From: a virus
DNA: 64,000 bases
Reading direction: 5' to 3' (one strand)
Virus record (IMG/VR): IMGVR_UViG_3300044695_003767
Positions 18,221-53,900 of this stretch are shown here, piece after piece. The position numbers and the translations under genes are program-made. Each line of letters begins with the position of its first letter. The first letter of the stretch is position 1. The notes under the pieces are model-generated. The model saw only the letters and a program-made list of their open reading frames with translations. It was not told where the DNA came from and ran no database searches.

Positions 18221-18346
18221 ATGGATCTGTCTGAACTGATTGAAGAACTGCGGGAAATCGAAATCTATGGTTCTGAACCAGCAGATTGGATGGGATTCCT
18301 GGGTGATGACGACTCCTGGGTGCCAGATCATGAACTGGCATACTGA
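18221..18346 (+). CDS. 41-aa acidic protein forming a one-gene cassette
   Basis: MDLSELIEELREIEIYG...; between dyad copies 6 and 7. Confidence 0.6.
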   Translation: MDLSELIEELREIEIYGSEPADWMGFLGDDDSWVPDHELAY

Positions 18347-19044: not shown

Positions 19045-19521
19045 ATGTCTTACTTTGAAATGTCTGGATATGGTTACTCTAAACGTACCTGTCAGGATGT
19101 TACCACTTGGTTTCTGAATAAGTTCCTTCCACGCCATAAGATTGAGGTGGAGATTCGTCACCGTGGTCTGCGTCGTGAACAAGTTTATGGTTACTGTGAT
19201 TATGTGGGAGAATCTTATCGTCCTCGTGAGTTTTTGATTGAACTCAACACCTATATGTGTGAGGAGTTGTATATAAAAACTCTTTTACACGAACTGGTCC
19301 ACCTGCGGCAGTGGGTAGTCGGTTCACTGCGGGTCCGTCGTGGAAAAATGTGTTATGGTAAACAATGTGTTGAAGATTATGAGTATTGGTATCAGCCCCA
19401 CGAAATAGAGGCACGGGAGCAAGAAGAAACCCTATATCTTGAGTACCTAATTGAGAAGCAAGGTGTGCCAGATCCCAAAGTGGCACAGTTCTTCCCGAAC
19501 CGCCTGCTGCAGGCAGTATAA
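19045..19521 (+). CDS. zincin-type (HExxH) metallopeptidase-like protein
   Basis: TLLHELVHLRQ plus downstream PHEIEA; start uncertain. Confidence 0.75.
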   Translation: MSYFEMSGYGYSKRTCQDVTTWFLNKFLPRHKIEVEIRHRGLRREQVYGYCDYVGESYRPREFLIELNTYMCEELYIKTLLHELVHLRQWVVGSLRVRRGKMCYGKQCVEDYEYWYQPHEIEAREQEETLYLEYLIEKQGVPDPKVAQFFPNRLLQAV

Positions 19522-23776: not shown

Positions 23777-25045
23777 ATGCCAGTTAATACAACACAGACA
23801 AAGTATTTTCAGAATATTGGACCAAGTGCAGATTCTCTGAGTTTCAGTACAATTGCCTCTACATTAGGAAACTCTTCGACGAACATTCGATTTGGTGATT
23901 ATCGAAGAAAGACAAGTGCAAATGAAGTATTTGTCGATGTAAGTGCCAGTGCAGAACAAAAACTTGCACAGACTGGTATTGTACCTGATTCAATTGAAAA
24001 TCAGACTTGTGGTGTCGATGGAAACGGAATTACGACACTGAACGATCATAAGATTTCCAGTCTGAAGAATATGATCAAACGTTATGATGTATCCTATACT
24101 GGAAACACATCCAGTCAAATTGACATTAGCCCTGGTGGTGGAACGATTGCAGATAACTGGGCAACAAATATTGATTTGAATGTACCAAAAAGAGTCACCT
24201 TTGATAGTTCGACACTAAAGGCAAGTACAACATCAGAACACGCTGTCGTGTTTAGTGGTTCGGCACTAAATTTAGATCTAACGTTCAATGCCACACAGGT
24301 TCTGGGAAGAGAAGGAGTTGGTGGAACAAAGGCAACTGCCAATACATCTGCGACTGGTGGTGGTGCTGGTGGTGGTGCATTGTATCTGAGAAATACGACA
24401 TCCAGAACATCTGGAAATGCGTCTACAATTAATCTAACTCTCAACAATACTGCACTGATTGCTGGTGGTGGAGGCGGTGGAGGTGGTGGTGCCACAGGAA
24501 CAGTTAGTGGTACGACTCAATGCACCAATTACAATGATTATTCTTATAATAACAATTATTGGGCTTATCTTTACGGTGGATGTCCAGTTGCTTGTGATAG
24601 TGGTGATACTCAATTAGCCTGTAATTATAGCAATGATATTCGATATTTCCGTGGTACGGGTGGATTTTCTCAGGGTACTTGGTATTCCTATCCCTGGACA
24701 GTCACGTGCCGTAAGTTTATCACCACCGACAATGGTGCAGTTGCAGCAGCATCTGGTGGAGATGGTGGTGTTGGTCAAGGATCAAACAATGCCAATGCAG
24801 GTGTTGGAGGTAATGCAAGTGGTGCAGCATCACTAAATTGCCCTGGTGGTACTTATGCCCAGAATGCAACATCGAATACGACTGCTGGTGTTGCTGGTGG
24901 AGATGGTGGAACCTATGGTCTTCCTGGTGGAAATACAAATGTAGCCAATGGTGGATCTGCTGGTCCTTGGTTGAATGTATCTAATACACGATGGGCAAAC
25001 AGAGGTGCATCAGGAGCACTTGTACAAAGAGTCAATACTATTTGA
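23777..25045 (+). CDS. Gly-rich tail-fibre tip / gp38-like adhesin
   Basis: VLGREGVGG, GGGAGGGALYL, NNTALIAGGGGGGGGG match gp38-type Gly-rich motifs; late-like CTAAATA at 23740. Confidence 0.65.
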   Translation: MPVNTTQTKYFQNIGPSADSLSFSTIASTLGNSSTNIRFGDYRRKTSANEVFVDVSASAEQKLAQTGIVPDSIENQTCGVDGNGITTLNDHKISSLKNMIKRYDVSYTGNTSSQIDISPGGGTIADNWATNIDLNVPKRVTFDSSTLKASTTSEHAVVFSGSALNLDLTFNATQVLGREGVGGTKATANTSATGGGAGGGALYLRNTTSRTSGNASTINLTLNNTALIAGGGGGGGGGATGTVSGTTQCTNYNDYSYNNNYWAYLYGGCPVACDSGDTQLACNYSNDIRYFRGTGGFSQGTWYSYPWTVTCRKFITTDNGAVAAASGGDGGVGQGSNNANAGVGGNASGAASLNCPGGTYAQNATSNTTAGVAGGDGGTYGLPGGNTNVANGGSAGPWLNVSNTRWANRGASGALVQRVNTI

Positions 25046-25070
25046 CATTTAATTCGATTGTTGATAGAAT
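25042..25070 (+). promoter_or_regulatory. sigma70-like promoter
   Basis: TTGACA-17 nt-TAGAAT with extended TG. Confidence 0.7.
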
Positions 25071-25089
25071 AGAAAAAAACTGATGTCAT

Positions 25090-25407
25090 ATGAAACTGTC
25101 TGAATTTATTTTTCATATTGTCTGTGAAATGAATGATGCTCGATTCGCATTTCCAGTCAAGGTCAAAGAAGAAAAGGAAAGACTGGCACATTGCCTGAGT
25201 TGTGATCATTATGATGCCGAATCTCAGATGTGTGGATTGTGCAATTGTTATGTGCCAAACAAGGTAAAGCACTTGTATGAGTTCTGTCCTCTCGAAAAAT
25301 GGGATCGAAGTTCCGAAACCTGGAATGATACGTATTGTAATCTGTTTGCCGAAAAAGTCATTGAAAAGTACCCTGATGCAGAAGAATGGAAGAATCAATT
25401 AAACTAA
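25090..25407 (+). CDS. Cys-rich DUF6171-like protein
   Basis: RLAHCLSC...CGLCNC...CPLEKW. Confidence 0.7.
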   Translation: MKLSEFIFHIVCEMNDARFAFPVKVKEEKERLAHCLSCDHYDAESQMCGLCNCYVPNKVKHLYEFCPLEKWDRSSETWNDTYCNLFAEKVIEKYPDAEEWKNQLN

Positions 25408-25985
25408 AAGGAACGTATGAAGACTTTATTGGAACATACGAAAACATTCTAGATTTCAATCTCTGTGATGAGATCATAGGTGCATTTGATTATTATCACG
25501 ATATGGATGCCGTCTTCTGTGAAGATGGACAATTTGAGAATTCCAATGCAGGACGATTCGATTGGGCAATTGATCTATCAGAACTTGGATCAACAATGAA
25601 ACCGACTCATCCTCAACAGATTGTGAATAATGTACTGAAAGAATGTCTAGATGAGTATATGACTGTCTTTGGTCATCTTAAACCATTGGTTCTTTATTCG
25701 ATTAATCAGAAGGTACAAAAGACTCCTGCTGGTGGTGGTTATCACGTCTGGCACGATGAGAATACTTCTATTCAACATTCATCTAGAGTTGCTGTTTGGA
25801 TGTTTTATTTGAATGATGACTTTGAAGGAGGAGAGACTGAGTTTCTGTATTATAAGAAGAGAATCAATCCATCGAAAGGAACATTGTTAATTTGGCCTGC
25901 TGGATTAACACATTGTCATCGTGGTGGATTAGTTCTGAAAGGTACAAAGTATGTTGTAACGGGATGGTTCTATGTCGGACAATAA
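25386..25985 (+). CDS. 2OG-Fe(II) oxygenase (prolyl-4-hydroxylase-like)
   Basis: GYHVWHDE, YLNDDFEGGET, THCHRG, KYVVTGW. Confidence 0.88.
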   Translation: MEESIKLKGTYEDFIGTYENILDFNLCDEIIGAFDYYHDMDAVFCEDGQFENSNAGRFDWAIDLSELGSTMKPTHPQQIVNNVLKECLDEYMTVFGHLKPLVLYSINQKVQKTPAGGGYHVWHDENTSIQHSSRVAVWMFYLNDDFEGGETEFLYYKKRINPSKGTLLIWPAGLTHCHRGGLVLKGTKYVVTGWFYVGQ

Positions 25986-26244
25986 AGAAGAGAAAGAGTT
26001 TCCATCATTAATCGAACAAGGAAAGAATCTGGCACAGTTCACGTTTGAGGTTGTTAAGGATGTTGTTGTGCCAAATACTGAACATCAGATCTATGCTAGT
26101 AATGAGGTTAAGAAGCAAAGGTTAGATACTTGTAAGACTTGCGAATATTATCATCAACAACAGAATCGTTGTAGGCACTGTGGTTGTTGGTTAGAACATA
26201 AGACTAAGTTCATTGTTGCAGAGTGTCCGATTGGAAAATGGTAG
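25972..26244 (+). CDS. Cys-rich DUF6171-like protein
   Basis: RLDTCKTC...CRHCGC...CPIGKW. Confidence 0.75.
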   Translation: MSDNKEEKEFPSLIEQGKNLAQFTFEVVKDVVVPNTEHQIYASNEVKKQRLDTCKTCEYYHQQQNRCRHCGCWLEHKTKFIVAECPIGKW

Positions 26245-26312
26245 CGAATAATACTAAAATAAGTTAAATTTAATTAAAAAAGGTATTAAAAAACTAATAT
26301 GTTCTTTCTATA

Positions 26313-26370
26313 ACATTCTCAATAAGGTGTAATTAATTGAGAATCAATAGTGTATTATAGTTGAGAATAA
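26313..26370. repeat. ~58-bp core with three ATTCTCAA boxes; inverted copy of 27120-27176
   Basis: Aligns with the reverse complement of 27120-27176 with few mismatches and indels. Confidence 0.8.
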
Positions 26371-26518
26371 GTCTTATACTTGTATTTTATAAGTGTGATA
26401 AAACCTTATAAATGCCTCTGAGACTTGTGTTCATAAAGTCTTTTAAATGTTTATAAATGCCTCTGAGACTTGTATTTTATAAGTGTGATAAAACCTTATA
26501 AATGCCTCTGAGACTTGT
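26361..26518. repeat. 45-bp-period array: 23-bp repeat x3 (+1 degenerate) with 22-bp spacers
   Basis: TTATAAATGCCTCTGAGACTTGT at 26406, 26451, 26496; degenerate at 26361; first and third spacers identical. Confidence 0.92.
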
Positions 26519-26533
26519 GAGTTTAGTCCGCGC

Positions 26534-26563
26534 ATTATAACACACGAGACCCCGAAATGTCAA
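26534..26563 (-). promoter_or_regulatory. consensus sigma70 promoter on minus strand facing the 45-bp array
   Basis: TTGACA-18 nt-TATAAT with extended TG (plus strand ATTATA 26534, TGTCAA 26558). Confidence 0.8.
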
Positions 26564-26598
26564 CCCCCCACGAGATTTGCTACGAGACCCACACATAT

Positions 26599-26856
26599 CT
26601 CGACGAGAATTATAATCATATCTTAACATTTCTCGACGAGAATACATATATATCATTATGAGACTCGACGAGATTGTGCATCATAAGGGCTTGCAAACTC
26701 GTCGAGATCGTGCTACACTATAACAGTCATCAATCATTCTCGACGAGCATTATGTACGACGACTACGATCTCGACTACTCTTTCAGTAACGATTACAATC
26801 TCGACGAGGACTCATACTACGAGCATTATGTGCAAGGTGATGCGAACCTCGACGAG
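26599..26856. repeat. array of 9-bp dyads CTCGWCGAG
   Basis: Copies at 26599, 26632, 26664, 26698, 26739, 26800, 26848. Confidence 0.88.
26691..26719 (+). promoter_or_regulatory. sigma70-like promoter with CTCGTCGAG in spacer
   Basis: TTGCAA-17 nt-TACACT with extended TG. Confidence 0.6.
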
Positions 26857-26913
26857 GATTATGCACGAGATGGGCAAGATTACGAATCACTTGCATATCG
26901 TCATTATGCATGA
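26752..26913 (+). CDS. 53-aa Asp/Tyr-rich protein
   Basis: MYDDYDLDYSFSNDYNLDEDSYY...; downstream of 26691 promoter. Confidence 0.65.
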   Translation: MYDDYDLDYSFSNDYNLDEDSYYEHYVQGDANLDEDYARDGQDYESLAYRHYA

Positions 26914-26943
26914 TAGAATCTAGCACACATACACGAGAGCATC

Positions 26944-27096
26944 ATGATAGCACAGAAGCGTATCGTACAGGTTACACTAGATATCATGTGTTATGATGAT
27001 CTAGACCTAGATGATATTAACTGGCGTGAGTTATTGCAACTCGAACCAGGTGAAGATGTCCATTGTAAGGTACAAGAATTCGATATCGATTGGTAA
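26944..27096 (+). CDS. hypothetical protein (50 aa)
   Basis: MIAQKRIVQVTLDI...; stop abuts dyad copy 10. Confidence 0.65.
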   Translation: MIAQKRIVQVTLDIMCYDDLDLDDINWRELLQLEPGEDVHCKVQEFDIDW

Positions 27097-27199
27097 TGTG
27101 CCAGTTTGTAGATTGGCACATATTCTCAATTAGTAATACTTATTGATTCTCAATAACAAGATCTTATTGAGAATATGTGACAGTCGGAGAACTGGCACA
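27097..27199. repeat. 103-bp imperfect palindrome containing dyad copies 10 (27098-27119) and 11 (27177-27198)
   Basis: Symmetric about 27148; arms TGTGCCAGTT-N4-GAYTGKCAC-ATATTCTCAAT; centre TTATTGA-TTC-TCAATAA. Confidence 0.88.
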
Positions 27200-27235
27200 A
27201 GACCCATTGCATACGTGATATCTCCGTGCCATACT
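27177..27235 (+). promoter_or_regulatory. dyad + -35/-10 early-type promoter, copy 11
   Basis: GTGACAGTC-GGAG-AACTGGCAC; TTGCAT-17-CATACT. Confidence 0.85.
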
Positions 27236-27286
27236 ACATTCGTGGTTGAGAAATTCTCTACATTCTCTTCCAACCACGAAAATATC

Positions 27287-27535
27287 ATGAAACTCTTTGC
27301 CTCGAAATTCTACCAAACTCTGGTGCTAAATGTTGCCACGATTGCTGCAATTGTCGTGGGTTTGTATCAGTTTGCTGTTCGTGCCTATGTTGAAAACAAC
27401 GGGGCAGAAAAGACCCGCAAGGTGATTCAAACTGTTCTGCAGTTCGTTGATACTATTGTTGGGCAATTGCAAGCGTTGGTTGATACCGATGTGCCAGTTG
27501 TGAAAGTGGCACAGAAAACTACCAAACGTTCCTGA
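27287..27535 (+). CDS. small membrane protein
   Basis: One TM helix; 3' end contains dyad copy 12. Confidence 0.65.
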   Translation: MKLFASKFYQTLVLNVATIAAIVVGLYQFAVRAYVENNGAEKTRKVIQTVLQFVDTIVGQLQALVDTDVPVVKVAQKTTKRS

Positions 27536-27548
27536 TTCCTGCTAGTTT
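27491..27548 (+). promoter_or_regulatory. dyad + -10 early-type promoter, copy 12
   Basis: GTGCCAGTT-GTGA-AAGTGGCAC, TAGTTT after 30 nt. Confidence 0.8.
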
Positions 27549-27570
27549 ACATTCGTTCCTGAGATTTCCG

Positions 27571-27774
27571 ATGATTTTTCTGACTTCTACCAATCACGGT
27601 TGTGTGTATACTTTGGGACAAGAAGATGGGGATGAGTTGTATTATGCCCCAATCTACACCAACGGTACAGTAAATCTCGAAGAATTTGCTCCTGTTGATA
27701 TGAATGAAATTGATATGGATGATATGGAAGTGTTTGATATCATTCGTCGCCTTAAAGTTATGAATGAGGTGTGA
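27571..27774 (+). CDS. hypothetical acidic protein, one-gene cassette
   Basis: Between dyad copies 12 and 13. Confidence 0.7.
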   Translation: MIFLTSTNHGCVYTLGQEDGDELYYAPIYTNGTVNLEEFAPVDMNEIDMDDMEVFDIIRRLKVMNEV

Positions 27775-27829
27775 CGGTCTGACAAGTGGCACACACCCCC
27801 TTGCGGTTCTGATTAATCCGTTCTACATT
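27771..27829 (+). promoter_or_regulatory. dyad + -35/-10 early-type promoter, copy 13
   Basis: GTGACGGTC-TGAC-AAGTGGCAC; TTGCGG-17-TACATT. Confidence 0.8.
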
Positions 27830-27852
27830 ACATTCGTTCCTGAGAGATTTCA

Positions 27853-28333
27853 ATGTTTGATGAACTCTGGTCTGAGATTCAAGATGCTCCTGGTGAGATC
27901 TTCGATATGGACATTCCCGAACTTCGTGATACTGAGAAGTTCGATGTCAATGAGTACCTGAACGCAAACTACGATTACTGATGAACACAATCAGTCGCCA
28001 ACATTGGGACACTCTTTATACCAAACTCTACGATGCGTATGAAGAGTGTTCTAAGAATTATGATGAAACTTACCGACAAAAAATCGGTATGATTCTTGAC
28101 CACATGATTTACAATCAACCCCACCTTAACATCAAATGACTGACACCTTTGACCGTGATTCTCTCATTGCTGATTATGCTCAGCAGATCCTAGATGGGAT
28201 GGATATGAAAACAATGGAGTGTTTCGTTTATGATACTTTGAAGGATAATCTTTCGTCCTATTCTGATGAGGAATTGATTGCTGAGATTACAGAATACAAT
28301 CCCGAACTGCTGGAGGATGTGACAGTCGGATAA
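27853..28333 (+). other. three small CDSs (27853-27981, 27981-28139, 28136-28333)
   Basis: TGATG/ATGA overlaps. Confidence 0.65.
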
Positions 28334-28377
28334 GTGGCACAAGGGGGATTGCAAAGTCCCCCGATCTGATCCATACT
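28319..28377 (+). promoter_or_regulatory. dyad + hairpin + -35/-10 early-type promoter, copy 14
   Basis: GTGACAGTC-GGAT-AAGTGGCAC; GGGGGATT-GCAA-AGTCCCCC hairpin; TTGCAA-17-CATACT. Confidence 0.85.
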
Positions 28378-28402
28378 ACCTTTGTTGAAACGAACGACAC
28401 CA

Positions 28403-28624
28403 ATGAGCACCGCAACTTACAACGGTTGGGCAAACTACGAAACCTGGAATGTTGCTCTGTGGATTCAGAATGATGAGGGTTTGTATAACATTGCCCGTCG
28501 TTATGATGATTATCTTAAGTTCGTAAAGCACATGTGGTTTGATGCTACAACTCCCGATGGGGTTAGCTACACTGATCCTAAACTTGATTGGGATGAACTG
28601 AATGAAATGATGGCCGATCTCTGA
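28403..28624 (+). CDS. conserved phage protein (YNGWANYETWNVALW)
   Basis: Recognisable phage motif. Confidence 0.75.
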   Translation: MSTATYNGWANYETWNVALWIQNDEGLYNIARRYDDYLKFVKHMWFDATTPDGVSYTDPKLDWDELNEMMADL

Positions 28625-48300: not shown

Positions 48301-49364
48301 CACCCAAAAAAGAAGATAATATTGCAATTTTCTTCTATAGGGGAACAATTGGTTCAGATAGTGCTTTAAATACCGATATTTTACAAACAATAAAGATCGG
48401 TGATACTGTACAAGTATATAAAAATAATCAATATCCAAGTACGGTAGATCAAAATTCTAGATTAGTACAAAATATAGAACTAACTGATAGAATTGAAACT
48501 GACTTATACAATGGTCCAGGCATAGATGAAATTAATCCAAAACCTTTGAATTGGACAAAACAAAAAACTGATAAGAATATATTTGGACAAGTTGTATACA
48601 AGACAAGAGATTCCATAGAATCTCAAATTTATCCAACAGCAAAATTAATTTCAGGAATTACAACATTAAGTAACGAATTATTTGTAGATAATGCAACTTT
48701 CTTCAATTATAATAATCAAATACTTGCAAAAGAATTTGATCTTTTAATTGTAGGTAGTTCAAGTACTGTTGGAATATCAACTACCGAACCATTCCCAATT
48801 GAAACTGTTATAGGTGTTGATGCTTTATCTGTACAAGGTTTTGGTGGAGTTATAACTGGAATAGGAACTACAACTGGTATAGGTACTAATCTAGCCATTA
48901 AATTCACTCTTAATAACTTAGATTCTAATACCTTTGTAACTGCAGGTTTATCAACAGGATATCCAATTTATATTTACAATACAAGAGTTGGAAATGGAAT
49001 TACAGCAATTAATGCAAATAATAATAATATTATTGGAATAGGAAGCACTTATTTAGATTGCATTTACTATGTAAATGCTTGGTCTGGGGTTGTTGGTGAT
49101 GACAATGTTGGTATTGTTACTTGCAATATTCATTCTGGATCAAATATAGTAGGTATTGCAACTACTGGTACAGAATTAAGACCCGTTGGTAATTTTTCTT
49201 GGGGTAAATTAAGTGGATTTACAAGATCAGATAAACCAATTTCTATTGCAATTTCATCATATATTGCTGATGCTGGACTAACAACATATCCAACAATTCA
49301 AAGAAGATCCATAGGATTGAAATTGAGACGTGAAACTGGGGCATTACCAAAAAGATTAACGTGA
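36318..49364 (+). CDS. g7: giant baseplate wedge initiator gp7-like protein (4348 aa)
   Basis: Between gp6 and gp8; FYQSKGT, DNDYYQNLSY, many GxGY beta repeats, YHYH-like segment. Confidence 0.8.
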   Translation: MIQTGFDSRVKITDVIDNQLPSFVLDENPKLSDFLKQYYISQEYQGGPVDISENLDQYLKINNIISESISDREVYLTSNIGTDNKITISVNTTKGFPEKYGLLKINDEIITYTGITTNSFLNCQRGFSGITGYHQDLNEEELVFEKTNVQSHQEFSSVKNLSSLFLKEFYKKIKYTFAPGFEELDFDPRLNAGNFIKSIRSFYQSKGTDESFKILFKVLYNVEATVVNLENFLIKPSSAEYVRREVILVDPISGEPNNLVGQEIKKENDLTTFASVSEVEIITRNFKTYYKLSLFVGYDESSTIQGKFIVTPKSKCIETIAVGSSTISVDSTIGFPESGTLISGNNESITYSSKSINQFFGCAGIIDEISYGSDIRSDDVYFGYENGDVSKKVRFSILGSLSKFEQISDVLNGVAEGDDINIKSLGSPIDRTRFSNKTFKEIFANSWIYNSNSRFYIENFNGPKTLNLKSPILKDDLTSFKHGDAVEIVERGTNNVVFTSHIEERIGDNSKSIKLLGSFTPVGNTEYDLRRKVNKASSLYATIKGGNDNIISDVSNLYTNTDNAYVASNSLPSSNRGLSIPYNYQITKKLDSFNITNTSGTLENQIDIDYSVISFENSTSFITGDKIFYQPESDNLVGLDTGYYYVQIVSADNKKIKLYSSPSFIGSSSYLTFRSPYISGIGTHRFTLATQKSAIIGAQKLLKKFPLSKDRNTQTNLSSSKEILPGPIGLLINGVEIDSYKSTDKIYYGPLKSVDVLNGGNNYDVINLPKIVVSAGFGQTALIQPVISGSLNKIYVENQEFDIEKILSIGVNGGNGKGAVLEPTLNLRVREVLFDGRATTIGGGINTTTGQLTFDADHYFNDGEEIFYNANGNNGIGVGIGTSTLIDKASYYPKSTSPRTVLLYPSFNDYSTGINTIRFNTDNNFGVHKFYTKSDKKTLTDIKVINGGEGYTNRKLIVKPSGISTTTHTINFSNHGFKDGELVVYNYETSPISGISTDSNNQFYILKLDNDTFRLCDGGLNGSISSNYSRKNYLKFTSQGTGYQYFSYPAITVSVEFSSVGSSSTIQSVKNLNITPYVRGEIIDAYLYESGTGYGSTILNFEKKPIISIKNGRDAKIKPNISQGKINTVKIEYGGLEYFSIPDIVANDPTGKGSGAEFLPVIDNGRIVNVKVINSGIGYSSTSTISVIPSGFNAIFDTKVRSLTINNAERFKYENYTETLDSDLKYSIIGYFKNLQDSFEDDGSKHSKIIGWSYDGNPIYGAYGYTDPQDTNSSPKSLQSGYALNILYEDRPTGFSAGFFTEDYEYVGSGDLDQNNGRFCKTPEFPLGIYAYFSPINNISYVPQFPYFIGDSFKSNAIDENYYLNQSLFDFSENKVLRNTYPYKLIDPNAENDFLSGFFDLKNQIIKIESISGGYVNGYEILSGGNNYKVNDLITFEENENSNLLAKVSSIEGKTIKNIVCNQEIYDDIVLTKINNQTLNFSVSSTHTLNDSEYISLSGFSTVFNNLDGIYKVGVSTVSTTLVNNLPAAASIGTTEIYVSQIPNSIIPGNLIGIGSESALVLNTFKDRNIIRIKRSTTGISHTTSTKISLVPNSFTIDKNIEDFDSKLNNKVYFNPVESIGVGTQSGNSSFVTFNFADFTVQRDIPTRSIYLENHPFITNQKVLFTPPSGSISVSTNGTNTFSIPLSGSSQEFYVVNKTINTIGLKTSFDSAELFFHTNGINNDEYLLESQFNQIKGSATRFKTTVSLETAHELSDGDSIVLNLKPKLGVGIGTSTFVNVSYNETYQKLIFDTVGFGTTAVITSQFYYTKPTQQAIIDTYVGLGFTVGLGTTGTRSSQQIYDFIWDNYSKFDFDGDGVISDNDSLIAVREMSGIGFSGDLLIKNIVFPQNATRKTATSIRSYINSLTGGVGIGSTTYDINNSGLVDSKIDGELLTRFTSTDGLGKPGIYNPSPIRGQFNIQNHSFKTGDKVLYLNNNLDTLQPTNDGEYFIIKIDDNNLQLALTYKDCISNPPNAISIGYTGSDGQTIGLINPEIRVTKNNVLTFNLKDPTLAGYDLKIYYDKEFNDEFVSTGSTSSFTRYKVGTPGISVDASLEIEYDNETPQTLYYALEKNGNVIAPDFDVQNNSLITYNDSLYIKTSPYTIVGLGTTTFNIFLEKTPERVSYASTECEVLEYFTNSRTAKGPIHQIDITSRKSDYKIVPILQNIQSDEGVDGNIILKSNTIGDIKEVKITNEGFPYQSDITLKPSAYISPQILIKNANTIKSIEINSGGSNYSTEPNIIVVDVLSGQKIDSGILEARLSGTSISSVSIVQKPKGISDTEVKLIAINNTNGFSIQRIEVYSPVVFDLYISQPTDGFVIAPFAPGDSVFIEGIQKDDTVSGNGFNSENYGYNFFKVIDFDTTGLLAKIRIDASELTSLVGTPKTIQDFVPFIINEKNYPKFQIEKEKLGFSPGEKILSNGIERDLRVVFSSNSYIKVFGSYELSVDEVITGKESGTIVTVAEIKDNIAQFEIDYSTKVTNGWANNVGKLNNDDQVIPDNDYYQNLSYTIKSPITYEKSKTIVNNLLHTIGTKNFSDTGITSTSNFSFNSEDSSITIKDIVTDQRTDTIYSFDLVKDINSFSGYSKFLEFNNKKLTPYINNQTNRVLKIDNINKEFSNLESNVNPYLDVANLTIDNNEYLNILVRVSDVNGSKVQLSELVILNKETDTFLLEKGSIVNVGTGLTEVSNEKIGDFSLETKNTEINLRFTPVDPTSTDYDLKWIQNSFRSNAVGVASTSIGFVKLLNSIQRITPGISTGVGISTNIISLESTSFKSLHASIQVTDDVTNQMQYSEIYLTHDDTNSYISEFYFDDFGNDGNAYSSNFIGSFSSNIDVISNVLSLDFTNSGVNTNNITIKANIVGFGTTSLGIGTYRFKKSGTPNGFERSAIYDAYHTSTISNNPVQILTKTASSFNSFKSLVEVSIGSTKAIHQIFTIYDGSDVYVKQLPFLSVSGISTSDLGVGLGTFGGSISGGNLILTFYPDPTFTQRINISNFSKILYSSVDSINVPPDLNYYSDAGALLAKDSTKVKYYNSINGERINKKDFLMFYNELPIFAREIDTSLPTELNPTTGTFTSNQHFFSENEELIYTPKSTIIGIGSTPLMYKSSGGIGTLPSTVFVVNKSENTFQISTTKSGVAVTFVSVGEGNAHMFEMKKKNEKCVLTIDDVIQYPIFPKQIYYQLSNPISAGQSTFQMTGITTIVPKDILKIDNEYMGVLSVGFGTTSIGPIVGTGTFGLVTVSRGQLGTLKASHNSGSQVSVNVGAFNIVGNTLYFTDPPRGNVQEEKDNSNLDSIKSDFTGRVFLRKDYTTNIIYDDISTRFNGIGRTFTLTVGSANTVGLGTSGGNGLLLINGLFQTPTTSNNPLNNFRLVENAGITSVVFTGVRVSGSAESDIVSTYDINQNDRPRGGLIISIGSTTGVGYAPLVGARVRPIVSSAGTITSVVGTSYTGTSVSISTANYNNFSGLIEITTSQPHQLSESDLVRLVGLAFTCPSNPGVTSYFPRSTASHLESTFPIISIGSSTVFTAKVGISTLPHSYIGFGTVFPQYSLNFGSGYRSPVSIAITQSGHSGTIASITANVGAGGTLSFTVNSGGSGYSTTTKTEIFIPDPSYTNLPVTGVSRVGLGSTTTTGVGLLLDLEVDSNPYNAGGKFYDAANLISRNLQLIADVAVGRMLAAYPSFTVPGGNQQCSDDIKSVLETVIYNLRFGGNDQVYEAANIYKTNQTLLSGEEIQSIYAFNQARDLAIQAMRNEVINTNGYTTETQVIDNTVIGDASDTPGVYTLGDCADVASAIGSYVGIVTNTIANVIAYGATATIPATKTVATGSLFSVKNFTVKRPGYSFQKGDVIRPVGLVTDARLNNPLTNFELTVLDTFTDSFALWQFGNLDYIDSVAAYQNGVRLSFPLYYNGQLLSFQKDPNFDMDMKNLLVIFVNGILQEPGKSYDFDGGTTLSFINAPKKEDNIAIFFYRGTIGSDSALNTDILQTIKIGDTVQVYKNNQYPSTVDQNSRLVQNIELTDRIETDLYNGPGIDEINPKPLNWTKQKTDKNIFGQVVYKTRDSIESQIYPTAKLISGITTLSNELFVDNATFFNYNNQILAKEFDLLIVGSSSTVGISTTEPFPIETVIGVDALSVQGFGGVITGIGTTTGIGTNLAIKFTLNNLDSNTFVTAGLSTGYPIYIYNTRVGNGITAINANNNNIIGIGSTYLDCIYYVNAWSGVVGDDNVGIVTCNIHSGSNIVGIATTGTELRPVGNFSWGKLSGFTRSDKPISIAISSYIADAGLTTYPTIQRRSIGLKLRRETGALPKRLT

Positions 49365-50977: not shown

Positions 50978-53900
50978 ATGGCACAAAAAACGAATTTAAA
51001 TATTAGTCCATATTACGACGATTTCAGTTCGGATAAAAATTTTTATAAGATTTTATTTAATCCAGGAAGACCCGTCCAAGCTAGAGAATTAACAACAATA
51101 CAATCTTTATTACAAAACCAAATAGAATCTTTTGGTAGTCATATGTTTAAAGAGGGATCGATGGTGATCCCTGGTAATTTAACTTATGATGGACAATTTT
51201 ACGCAGTACAACTAAATTCATCTAATACTGGTACAGATATTGCGTTATATCTGGAAAGTTTGATAGGGAAAAAAATTACAGGTCAAACCTCAGGAATAAC
51301 AGCAACAGTTCAACACATTGAGTTACCTAATGGAACTTCTGTTTTAAACCCAACAATTTATGTAAAATACTTAGAATCCGATAATGATTTCAATTTTACA
51401 CAATTTAATGATGGAGAATTTTTAACTGCCAATGAAAATATAGTTTATAGTGGCACCACTATAAACACAGGAACTCCTTTTGCATCTCTCATATCATTTA
51501 ATGCAACTTCAGTGGGATCTGCAGCATTCATCAACTCTGGAGTTTATTTTGTTAGAGGATTTTTTGTAAATGTACCTAAACAAACATTAATTTTAGATTA
51601 TTACACGAATAATCCGTCATATAGAGTTGGATTGACAATAGAAGAAATTATAATAACACCTAAAGATGACAAATCAATTTATGATAATGCTAAAGGATTT
51701 GAAAATTATGCTGCGCCAGGTGCAGATAGACTTCAAATCCAATTAACATTAGATAAAAAATTATTAACAGATTTAAATGACAGTAACTTTATTGAACTTT
51801 TAAGGATAGATAACGGAAAAATTAAAAAAATAGAAAATAAGTCTATTAATGACAAATTTAGAGATTACCTGGCCCAAAGAACTTATGAAGAGTCTGGTGA
51901 TTATGCAGTAGAACCTTTTAATCCATCTATTCATAACTCTTTAAATAATAGATTAGGGAATAATGGATTATTTTTCTCAAATGAGTCTACTCCAAATGGG
52001 GGAAATCCATCAGATGATCTGATGTGTATTAAAGTTTCACCAGGAAAAGCATATGTGAGAGGATACGATATCCAAAAATCTTCAACAACTATTTTAGATG
52101 TAGATAAGCCAAGAGATACTAAATCAGAATCTAATGTAGGAATATCTTTTGAGATGGGTAATTTGTTACGAGTTAACAACGTAACTGGAATTCCACAACA
52201 AAAAGGGATAGTAACATTATATGATCAACTTGGTTCTACTGGAACTGGAATTGGAAGTGCCAGAGTGTATGCTTTCAACCTAACCGATTCGGCATACTCT
52301 AGTACATCCACAAATTGGGATTTATATCTATACGATATTCAAACAAATATAAGACTAGTATTAAACAGATCATCTAGTTCATCTGAGATTCCAGCATCAT
52401 CTCTTATTAAGGGTAAAAATAGTGGGGCAAGTGGATATACTGTAGCATCTGCAAATGGATCCGATACTATTAGTGTCAGACAAACTTCCGGAACCTTTAT
52501 GGTTGGTGAATCAATAACTGTTAATGGTATTGATTTTCCAAGAACAATTATATCATCAAATGTATTTAATACTCAGAGTATTAAATCAGTTAAACAAGAT
52601 GTATTTTCAACTGTTGGTGTTCCTACCTTTACTGCAGACACTGTACTAGAAAGATTTAGATTTTTTGGTGGAATTACAGAGGCAAATATTTCTGCAGCTG
52701 TTGGTGGAGTTTCAACAATAACCAGTCCAGGTAGATTTTTTACTGGTATTACAACAGGTAATTTAGTTAGATATCAAAAGGTTGGATTTAATACTGAGAC
52801 TTATAATAGAATTAATTCAGTTTCATCAGATGGATCTTCAATGCAAATTGTGGCTCTAAGTTCTAATGTTTCTGGTGTCTATGAAGGTTCTCTACCAACT
52901 AGTGCAATAAGAACTAATGTTTTTCCAACAGCAACAATCATAAGAAATCCAAGTGCTGGATATCTTTACAGTGATATTCCGCATAAAAATATTTCTAGTG
53001 TAAATTTATCAGACTCTTCTTTAAAAATATCAGTACAATTAGCAAATCAAAGTATTACAAACAATCAAATAACTCTTGATGCATCAACTATTGCGTCCTC
53101 TATCGGAATTGTAACAGCATATTTTGACTCATTTGACCAAGAAAGATACTCAGTAGTCTATAATAATGGAACAATAGCAACTTTATCAAGTGATTCTGTA
53201 GAAGTATCTAATACAAGTTTAGTAATAAGGAATTTAACAAATACTAATGCCACAATAAATGTAACTTTAGTTAAGACTGGAGTTAAAAATAAAATTAAAA
53301 ACTATGTAAGAAGTGAAAAATTAGAAATAACAAGATCTAAGTATTTGCAATCTGGATCTGGGATCAATACTTCAATTTCTGATGGATTAACATTTAACCC
53401 ATACTATGGGTTAAGAGTTCAAGATGAAGATATTTGTTTATTAAAACCAGATGTAGTTAAAATTATTGGTATTTTTGAATCATATGATTCAACATCACCA
53501 TCTTTAGATAGAATTTTATTTACTTCTACTGCTAACGTTAGTACAAATGCAATTGTTGGTGAAAATATAATAGGTAGTTCTTCAAAAGCTGTCGCAAGAG
53601 TAGTTGAAAGGTTATCAAGTCCATCAAATACACTAGAAGTAATTTATTTAACTGATGATAGATTTTCAGTAGGAGAAGATGTGATATTTGAGGAATCAAA
53701 TATTAAAACACAAATTGAATCTATTAGAATTGGAAAGTATAAGGATATTACTTCAACATATACCTTAGACAAAGGGCAGAAAGAGGAATATTATGATTAT
53801 TCCAAATTAGTAAGAAATAAAAATATTTCAGAACCAAGCAAAAAATTATTAGTAGTTTATGACTACTATAATGTAGAATCGAATGACAATGGAGATGTCT

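Follow-up and report, generated by a model that had tools for sequence, protein, structure and literature searches.

A conserved early control module of T4-like cyanophages and its candidate promoter-driven replication origin

Here, we describe a 0.95-kb locus with few genes in a 64,000-nucleotide stretch of viral DNA (IMG/VR record IMGVR_UViG_3300044695_003767; hereafter the window), which comes from a T4-like cyanomyovirus (Kyanoviridae) of Synechococcus in a freshwater lineage. The locus is a conserved early control module whose left half, on our leading but still tentative reading of sequence and comparison, would be a promoter-driven origin of replication resembling oriF and oriG of phage T4, joined to an operator region for immediate-early genes and under the control of DNA-binding proteins of the host. 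An origin is the best single reading because the locus has the oriF/oriG features at the level of sequence, relatives encode the helicase loader gp59, and several relatives carry arrays of DnaA boxes at the same place. A purely transcriptional switch explains almost as much and is nearly as likely.

T4-like cyanophages are among the most abundant viruses of lakes and oceans and shape carbon cycling, and their origins and early circuits are unmapped. The module is the best candidate so far for the place where these phages start to copy their DNA and switch on their first genes and, as a widely conserved non-coding unit present once per genome, it can be tested at the bench in cultured carriers. 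We found no published description of it.

Anatomy and conservation of the module

Read from left to right, the module consists of an AT-rich flank, a cluster of ATTCTCAAT boxes, CTTATAAA-type repeats, a leftward promoter, one or more rightward promoters with CTCGWCGAG palindromes, two open reading frames (ORFs) and a 103-nt palindrome. An earlier note, made from the letters of the window alone, had listed such a composite: a box core at 26313-26370, a 45-bp array, a leftward consensus promoter, a phased CTCGWCGAG array, a rightward promoter, two tiny ORFs and a palindrome holding the core inverted. All of these items proved to be in place, far above chance level, the rightward promoter being weak here. 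The features are as follows, with positions in the window and the strand where one applies.

26245..26314: AT-rich flank, ~81% A+T, containing TTAAAAA twice, lying after the stop codon of the DUF6171 CxxC gene and before core A
26315..26372: core A, with ATTCTCAAT at 26315-26323 (+), ATTGAGAAT at 26336-26344, which is ATTCTCAAT on the - strand, and TTGAGAAT at 26361-26368
26378..26519: 45-bp array, 3.2 copies with 78% match (Tandem Repeats Finder); the true unit is CTTATAAATGCCTCTGAGACTTGTG
26563 to 26534 (-): leftward sigma-70 promoter, TTGACA-18-(TG)TATAAT, 12/12, predicted start ~26527
26599..26856: seven CTCGWCGAG palindromes, starting at 26599, 26632, 26664, 26698, 26739, 26800 and 26848
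26691..26719 (+): rightward promoter, TTGCAA-17-TACACT, with CTCGTCGAG in the spacer, 8/12
26752..26913 (+): ORF1, 53 aa, very acidic and Tyr-rich, MYDDYDLDY...SLAYRHYA
26944..27096 (+): ORF2, 50 aa, phrog_12516, a conserved gene, first in the rightward unit
27097..27199: 103-nt palindrome, with TGTGNCA..TGKCACA dyads at 27097-27120 and 27176-27199 on either side of core B
27118-27174: core B, with ATTCTCAAT at 27122 (+), 27146 (+) and 27166 (-)
27191..27235 (+): first dyad-type early promoter, read from sequence as ACTGGCACAAGACCCA, TTGCAT at 27207-27212, a 17-nt spacer and CATACT at 27230-27235

The composite core, defined as TTCTCAATAAG-N5-11-TGAGAATCAATA, matches at least 120 IMG/VR viral contigs in three contexts: the left core (60 matches), the palindrome with dyads (50) and a third lineage (16). 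The module occurs in more than 110 distinct cyanomyovirus contigs, and its cultured carriers are S-SRM01, DSL-LC03, S-SM2, S-SCSM1, Bellamy and S-SKS1. A comparison of architecture with related cyanophages, which the earlier note had proposed as a check, shows it to be conserved and present once per genome; five relatives, 172-241 kb long, each have a single copy of the strict composite core. A scan of 185,579 prokaryote genomes gave one match to the composite core, on an 8.9-kb contig of the metagenome-assembled genome (MAG) 'Gammaproteobacteria bacterium MED656' (L149, NZHF01000011.1, 2634-2666), which is probably a cyanophage fragment mis-binned into the MAG. A BLAST search with 25000-28500 matched cyanophages only, the locus itself matching S-SRM01 (72% identity, 26269-27045) and DSL-LC03.

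The boxes are concentrated at the locus: of the six ATTCTCAAT copies in the window, five lie within 26315-27174, and a complete relative (G004) has six of its ten here, in two clusters ~740 bp apart. Across 43 distinct loci a leftward TTGACA promoter stands 90-270 nt from core A, on its right side, together with the first-transcribed block ...CCTTATAAAtgCCTCnnGnCTTGTGA..., and most of these loci have a rightward TTGACA promoter 50-75 nt beyond the leftward one. The complete module, including both ORFs and the dyad palindrome, lies at 1730-2760 of S-SKS1 (L128, HQ633071) in the order three DnaA boxes, five 21-bp CTTATAAA repeats, leftward promoter, CTCGWCGAG, ORFs and dyad palindrome. S-SKS1 belongs to another genus, Llyrvirus, in a lineage without a family name, and its possession of the whole module points to horizontal exchange between phage groups sharing a host.

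A candidate origin in the leftward arm

Neither strand of the 64 kb has a 12/12 promoter match other than the leftward promoter, and no ORF lies 3' of that promoter. It reads toward DNA in which GC content falls to 24-26% (26200-26500) vs ~40% in the surroundings, and the AT-rich flank at the far end is a candidate unwinding element. A+T content is 74-85% in 16 of 17 such flanks, DSL-LC03 standing at 68%, and over the 85 nt that precede the boxes on the left, the flanks of freshwater and marine phages align. Equally AT-rich DNA is present elsewhere in the window, so an unwinding element of this kind is a necessary feature of an origin and not a specific one.

The relatives supply the second line of evidence. 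The sequence TTTTCCACA is the cyanobacterial DnaA box (PMC4674748), and in DSL-LC03 seven of the ten copies in the genome fall within 456 bp at the locus. S-SKS1 has three DnaA boxes at an exact spacing of 21 bp and S-SM2 has two, 21 bp apart; in S-SKS1, S-SM2 and S-SCSM1 these boxes occupy the exact slot of core A, and in the latter two they directly follow the conserved AT-rich flank. We thus observe a substitution of DnaA boxes for ATTCTCAAT boxes, and over 113 distinct loci DnaA boxes are 8-fold enriched less than 1 kb from the core (0.19 vs 0.023 per kb). A DnaA cluster with an unwinding element, as in an oriC-type origin, is present in relatives and absent from the window. In the third-context lineage, a T-rich tract with repeated TTTTTTGAG/TTTTTGA follows the dyad promoter (+200 to +300 from the core in L120, +270 to +400 in L064); in L064 this tract adjoins three DnaA boxes. 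In both loci it has the look of another unwinding element.

The third line is gp59 (PF08993), which scores above cut-off in all five complete relatives (G004, DSL-LC03, S-SRM01, S-SKS1 and S-SM2). In the mechanism that we propose, host sigma-70 RNA polymerase would fire from the leftward promoter, the strongest in the window, and make an untranslated RNA that crosses easily melted DNA, namely the CTTATAAA repeats (24-26% GC), core A and the 81% AT flank. As in the T4 model, the RNA would remain hybridized to the DNA in an R-loop and serve as primer for the leading strand, and the gp59/gp41 helicase system would load on the displaced strand. A host DNA-binding protein may land on the box cluster and there gate or terminate the leftward transcript, with the slot holding Fur-type boxes (ATTCTCAAT) in this freshwater lineage and DnaA boxes in marine relatives. 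On the other arm, the rightward promoter, with CTCGTCGAG in its spacer and six more CTCGWCGAG on the same helix face, would drive two acidic immediate-early proteins, and a putative dimeric repressor would shut it. The rightward transcript would end in the 103-nt palindrome with its box cluster, just before the first dyad-type early promoter. We infer transcription, R-loop formation, protein binding and origin activity at the locus from these features.

The repeats that the leftward RNA would cross are variable. A CTTATAA(A) motif holds the array position across lineages with a period of 11, 12, 21, 22 or 45 bp. A 29.7-kb IMG/VR fragment with 95% identity to the window (G001; locus L003, reverse strand) has two CTTATAAATGCCTCTGAGACTTGTG units where the window has three, a 77-bp difference beside an adjoining 850 bp that are 99.9% identical. 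The array gains and loses units quickly, and the difference of one unit between these two phages indicates that the exact copy number is not critical. We rejected a CRISPR-like mini-array, since the 'spacers' of the 45-bp array are themselves repeated and G001 is simply one unit short. A T4-type late promoter (TATAAATA) is likewise unlikely, since the units, TATAAATG in the window, have CTTATAAAC, CTTATAAC or CTTATAAAG as their counterparts in relatives.

Several results weigh against an origin. No initiator (Rep) gene is adjacent: the neighbors are acidic proteins of 50-53 aa with no match to a known family or fold, and the downstream early genes are domains of unknown function (DUFs). Cumulative GC skew, another check proposed earlier, runs monotonically through the window, DSL-LC03 and G004 without reversing; it shows no inflection at the locus and is uninformative, as nearly all genes lie on one strand (long + strand ORFs make up 73% of the window). 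Extremes of GC or AT skew at third codon positions (GC3, AT3) are inconsistent: the window and DSL-LC03 (AT3) have one close to the locus, and G004 does not. No DnaA box lies at the window locus, and 5 relaxed boxes are found in the 64 kb where 13.9 are expected. P-TIM68 has ORF2 and the rightward promoter without the leftward promoter or the boxes, and the repeat copy number varies, as described above, between near-identical phages. T4-like phages replicate mostly by recombination, so that an origin may matter little. We also record that GC3 skew of + strand genes in the window runs from +0.04 to +0.12 left of ~26 kb and from -0.01 to -0.17 at 24-56 kb, and that the GC3 cumulative deviation has its maximum at 26,106, which is not so in G004.

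The identity of the boxes in the window weighs on both sides, the shared core in favor and the departures from the full consensus against. Anabaena FurA has the consensus AAATAAATTCTCAATAAAT (Gonzalez et al. 2014, PMC4005646); its core is ATTCTCAAT(AAG), the locus has five exact copies of ATTCTCAAT, and ATTCTCAATAAG and ATATTCTCAATTA are the two predicted sites of the Anabaena furA promoter (PMC4005646). The boxes share with those sites an identical 9-nt core, clustering in AT-rich DNA and a 13/19 match to the 19-nt consensus (hand count; the furA promoter sites also score 13/19), a consensus that comes from Anabaena while the hosts here are unicellular Synechococcus, whose Fur box may differ. 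They depart from FurA boxes in that the full 19-nt consensus has 0 matches at <=3 mismatches, that 7-1-7 inverted heptamers (TGAGAATNATTCTCA) are not enriched and none falls at the cores, and that no box overlaps a promoter in the window. Fur-bound boxes lie at about -100 to +50 of the regulated start (PMC8634477); core B spans about -120 to -68 from the predicted start of the promoter at 27207, and core A about +155 to +215 from the leftward start. With a match this modest and the 19-mer and 7-1-7 tests failed, the Fur reading is a lead and is not established. We know of no role for Fur in the start of replication.

The earlier note had suggested either a replication origin or an immediate-early switch for the locus. 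Its support is comparative, through conservation, single-copy status, the DnaA boxes of relatives, a promoter reading into AT-rich DNA and gp59, while GC skew has no inflection there and the window has no DnaA box at the locus. A wider scheme, which we hold to be rather unlikely as a whole, would give T4-like cyanophages one defined origin gated by a host protein that each lineage has recruited to the same fixed position; this protein would be DnaA in the marine lineages and, in the freshwater lineages, a metal regulator of the Fur type. Replication of the phage would thereby be tied to the iron status of the host or to its replication state, and the two acidic proteins with a CTCGWCGAG-binding factor would form a new immediate-early circuit. 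If a host DnaA or Fur-type regulator does bind, it would offer phages a new route for reading host physiology beside the known PhoB and NtcA links.

Operators, inverted cores and competing explanations

The right half of the module is dominated by CTCGWCGAG, whose seven copies in the window all lie within 26599-26856 (0.03 expected). The distances between them are 33, 32, 34, 41, 61 and 48 bp; in 43 related arrays, the distances concentrate near 21, 32, 42 and 63 bp, values that correspond to whole turns of the helix (Rayleigh p ~2e-7, indicative only, the arrays being related to one another). Two copies fall within ORF1 and encode Leu-Asp-Glu there; of the others, one is in the spacer of the promoter and another in the leader. 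In the ORF1 family, 49 of 60 Leu-Asp-Glu triplets are exactly CTCGACGAG, whereas codon use elsewhere in the ORFs predicts ~6.5%; the nucleotide word itself is therefore under selection. A DNA signal here overrides codon choice inside a gene, which points to a putative DNA-binding protein.

Every ORF1 homologue has one to six CTCGWCGAG sites upstream. Genome-wide, the sites are confined to this locus in G004, G003 and S-SKS1. S-SRM01 and G002 each carry two additional clusters, of 2-3 sites each, farther into the early region, 2.5-7 kb downstream (S-SRM01, MW015081, 88165-88252 and 90908-91005; G002, 48536-48569 and 52054-52139); the S-SRM01 cluster at 88.2 kb occupies an early intergenic gap flanked by small genes. 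Judged by position, these extra clusters look like a small regulon of the putative binder. With seven CTCGWCGAG and three CTTATAAATGCC units, the locus does have the three or more evenly spaced repeats expected of iterons; candidate operators on one helix face, for a putative dimeric regulator, nonetheless fit the CTCGWCGAG sites better than initiator iterons do.

Both ORFs are conserved, real genes. ORF1 has 42 distinct homologues, which keep the motifs MYDDYDLDY... and ...DYARDGQDYESLAYRHYA, and no Pfam or PHROG match. ORF2 has 44 distinct homologues of 50-57 aa in nearly all lineages, including the marine phages S-SM2, Bellamy, S-SCSM1, S-B05, SynMITS9220M01 and P-TIM68 as well as S-SKS1, and its fold model (pLDDT 81.5) has no match in the PDB. 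The position of their promoter is kept in S-SRM01, L071 and L111 as TTGCAA or TTGCAT-17-TATAAT, with CTCGTCGAG in the spacer.

The alternative named at the outset is an immediate-early switch with no role in replication, which we regard as a real possibility. Of the two divergent early transcripts, the leftward one would be non-coding and the rightward one an mRNA for both ORFs. Box clusters would serve as 3'-end or roadblock elements, or as operators of host regulators (a Fur-type protein here and, in marine relatives, DnaA in a transcription-factor role), such that early expression follows the iron or growth state of the host, and CTCGWCGAG would be the operator of a phage repressor. The CTCGWCGAG copy in the promoter spacer and the extra clusters in S-SRM01 and G002 suit this reading, as does the leftward RNA, which is predicted to fold better than shuffled sequence (z -3.7). 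The 103-nt palindrome directly abuts the 3' end of ORF2, as a terminator or a promoter-early stem-loop (PeSL) would, and as single-stranded DNA the segment 27085-27212 folds at -30.3 kcal/mol (z -9.2).

A plasmid parallel also favors a switch, and it bears on the identity of the boxes under the origin reading as well. On the Nostoc plasmid pNPM5 (L155, NZ_CP026687), ATTCTCAATAA-N8-TTATTGAGAA occurs twice, each time directly over a TATAAT promoter and beside direct repeats, which supports a cyanobacterial operator type. Three copies of the palindrome can be seen there (~1583-1650, 2010-2080 and 2490-2570), two of them ATTCTCAATAA-N8-TTATTGAGAA and one a TCAATAAG variant. Each is followed by a -10-like hexamer, TATAAT after the ATTCTCAATAA copies and TAATCA after the TCAATAAG variant, and all share a conserved leader of ~30 nt (..tgttgcaa..gtacttcaa..); the copies alternate with direct repeats. 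The region may be a plasmid control or origin region with the same operator. A match on a Tolypothrix plasmid was weak and not palindromic, and was not used.

The cores bear on the switch in both directions. Core A is a hairpin-capable, FurA-core-like box cluster, and core B is its collinear reverse complement, such that inverted 58-nt cores bracket the unit. The predicted leftward and rightward transcripts consequently read the element in one orientation (ATTCTCAA, TATTGATTCTCAAT, loop, CTTATTGAGAAT), which suits a signal read during transcription, and the inverted cores are most simply explained if they act in an orientation-dependent way where the two transcription units end. The variant boxes, however, carry single changes without a compensatory partner in the stems, which favors recognition of the sequence by a protein over a pure RNA stem. 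An Rfam scan gave no family, its sole match being a chance microRNA model on the palindrome (E 0.31, far under the gathering score). The repeat unit, period and copy number vary between lineages and even between near-identical phages, making a defined RNA structure unlikely. Same-strand DnaA boxes at 21 bp beside a conserved AT-rich block are also more origin-like than operator-like, and the boxes in the window leave the promoters clear. We retain the origin as the preferred reading of the left half.

Inverted cores could also be recombination sites, either the borders of a mobile or shuffled cassette, through a modular exchange of the kind ascribed to PeSLs, or the ends of an invertible segment, and the earlier note had suggested that they permit inversion. 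The bracketing of the unit, its sharing with S-SKS1 together with both ORFs and dyads, the variation of its internal content between lineages and the reports that PeSLs mediate shuffling in T4-like phages (PMC2839356, PMC4122927) speak for such sites. However, none of ~120 contigs shows a hybrid junction of the left flank of core A with the right flank of core B, and G001 is collinear with the window and in the same orientation; there is accordingly no sign of inversion, and this suggestion was not borne out. Moreover, the left flank is conserved together with the promoters that lie outside and inside the cores, their order being fixed, and no recombinase is encoded by the neighboring genes examined. 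We consider recombination sites very improbable.

A sink for host factors is an unlikely explanation as well. Clustered sites, multiplied by phage replication, could titrate host Fur or DnaA and so derepress iron uptake or block initiation on the host chromosome, much as datA titrates DnaA in E. coli. This would account for the different host-factor boxes in one slot across lineages and for six boxes per genome in two clusters, and we found no phage-encoded Fur. A sink would not need conserved promoters, a fixed place by the AT-rich block or a fixed orientation to the transcripts, and many relatives have only one or two boxes.

Beyond core B the early region begins. Full TGTGNCA..TGKCACA dyads start at 27097, 27176, 27490, 28318 and 29774, and half-sites are present in addition; of the eight dyad promoters in 3.6 kb counted by the earlier note, five full dyads and half-sites stand, and eight full copies do not. 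Stem-loops followed by sigma-70-like promoters thus recur between the small ORFs, and the first of these promoters (27191..27235) resembles a PeSL in its sequence layout. Two more dyads, TGCCAG..TGGCA at 19464-19487 and 18321-18340, lie outside the early region, ~8 kb upstream. A sigma-54 reading of TGGCAC..TTGCA was rejected, the spacing being 8 nt instead of 5; to our knowledge, sigma-54 is also absent from cyanobacteria.

The genes 5' of the locus encode a 2OG-Fe(II) oxygenase and a DUF6171 CxxC protein (an assignment made for the window gene only), and those 3' of it are small and early-type (DUF7326, DUF7249, DUF6267 and Kyano_Gp96). The upstream arrangement of a 2OG-Fe(II) oxygenase and then small ORFs is common to the window (25386-26244) and marine S-SCSM1 (L152, 1-852), whose GenBank record begins at the oxygenase gene, ~0.85 kb 5' of the module.

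Comparison with known systems

T4 oriF (uvsY) and oriG (gene 34) each combine a pre-late promoter with an A+T-rich unwinding element into which it transcribes, and the RNA made need not serve as mRNA (Kreuzer and Brister 2010, PMC3016281); T4 origins also sit near transcriptional divergence (PMC3016281). The module, likewise from a T4-like phage, has at the level of sequence a pre-late promoter, AT-rich DNA downstream of it, a predicted transcript with no ORF and, in relatives, gp59, which loads the helicase at R-loops and forks. It differs in that its promoter is a plain sigma-70 consensus, not MotA-dependent, cyanophages being without MotA; in that the transcribed tract has repeats and a box cluster; and in that there is one locus per genome vs several in T4. 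A single theta origin has been predicted for Syn9, as a citation in PMC2984593 has it, and this is the only published statement on such origins that we found.

T4 oriE has evenly spaced 12-nt repeats, whose role is undefined, and the small genes repEA and repEB (PMC3016281). The module similarly places evenly spaced short repeats beside tiny early genes, but these are 9-bp palindromes at whole helical turns that extend from the promoter as far as coding sequence, and some relatives also have them in other early intergenic gaps. PeSLs are the promoter-early stem-loops of T4-like phages (Arbiol et al. 2010, PMC2839356; Comeau et al. 2014, PMC4122927). In the module, too, each dyad is followed by a sigma-70-like promoter between small early ORFs, and the palindrome consists of two dyads; the dyad sequence is, however, specific to these cyanophages, the text of PMC4122927 makes no mention of cyanophages, and the palindrome also encloses a box cluster.

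The resemblance to oriC-type origins lies in the relatives, where DSL-LC03, S-SKS1, S-SM2, S-SCSM1 and several metagenomic lineages have perfect DnaA boxes, often 21 bp apart, beside an AT-rich block with a promoter reading in. In the window, by contrast, that slot is taken by ATTCTCAAT boxes with no DnaA box, no dnaA or dnaN lies nearby, and the phage has its own replisome. The origin of phage lambda is activated by transcription, and the promoter that reads into the DnaA-box and AT-rich region of these relatives recalls that arrangement.

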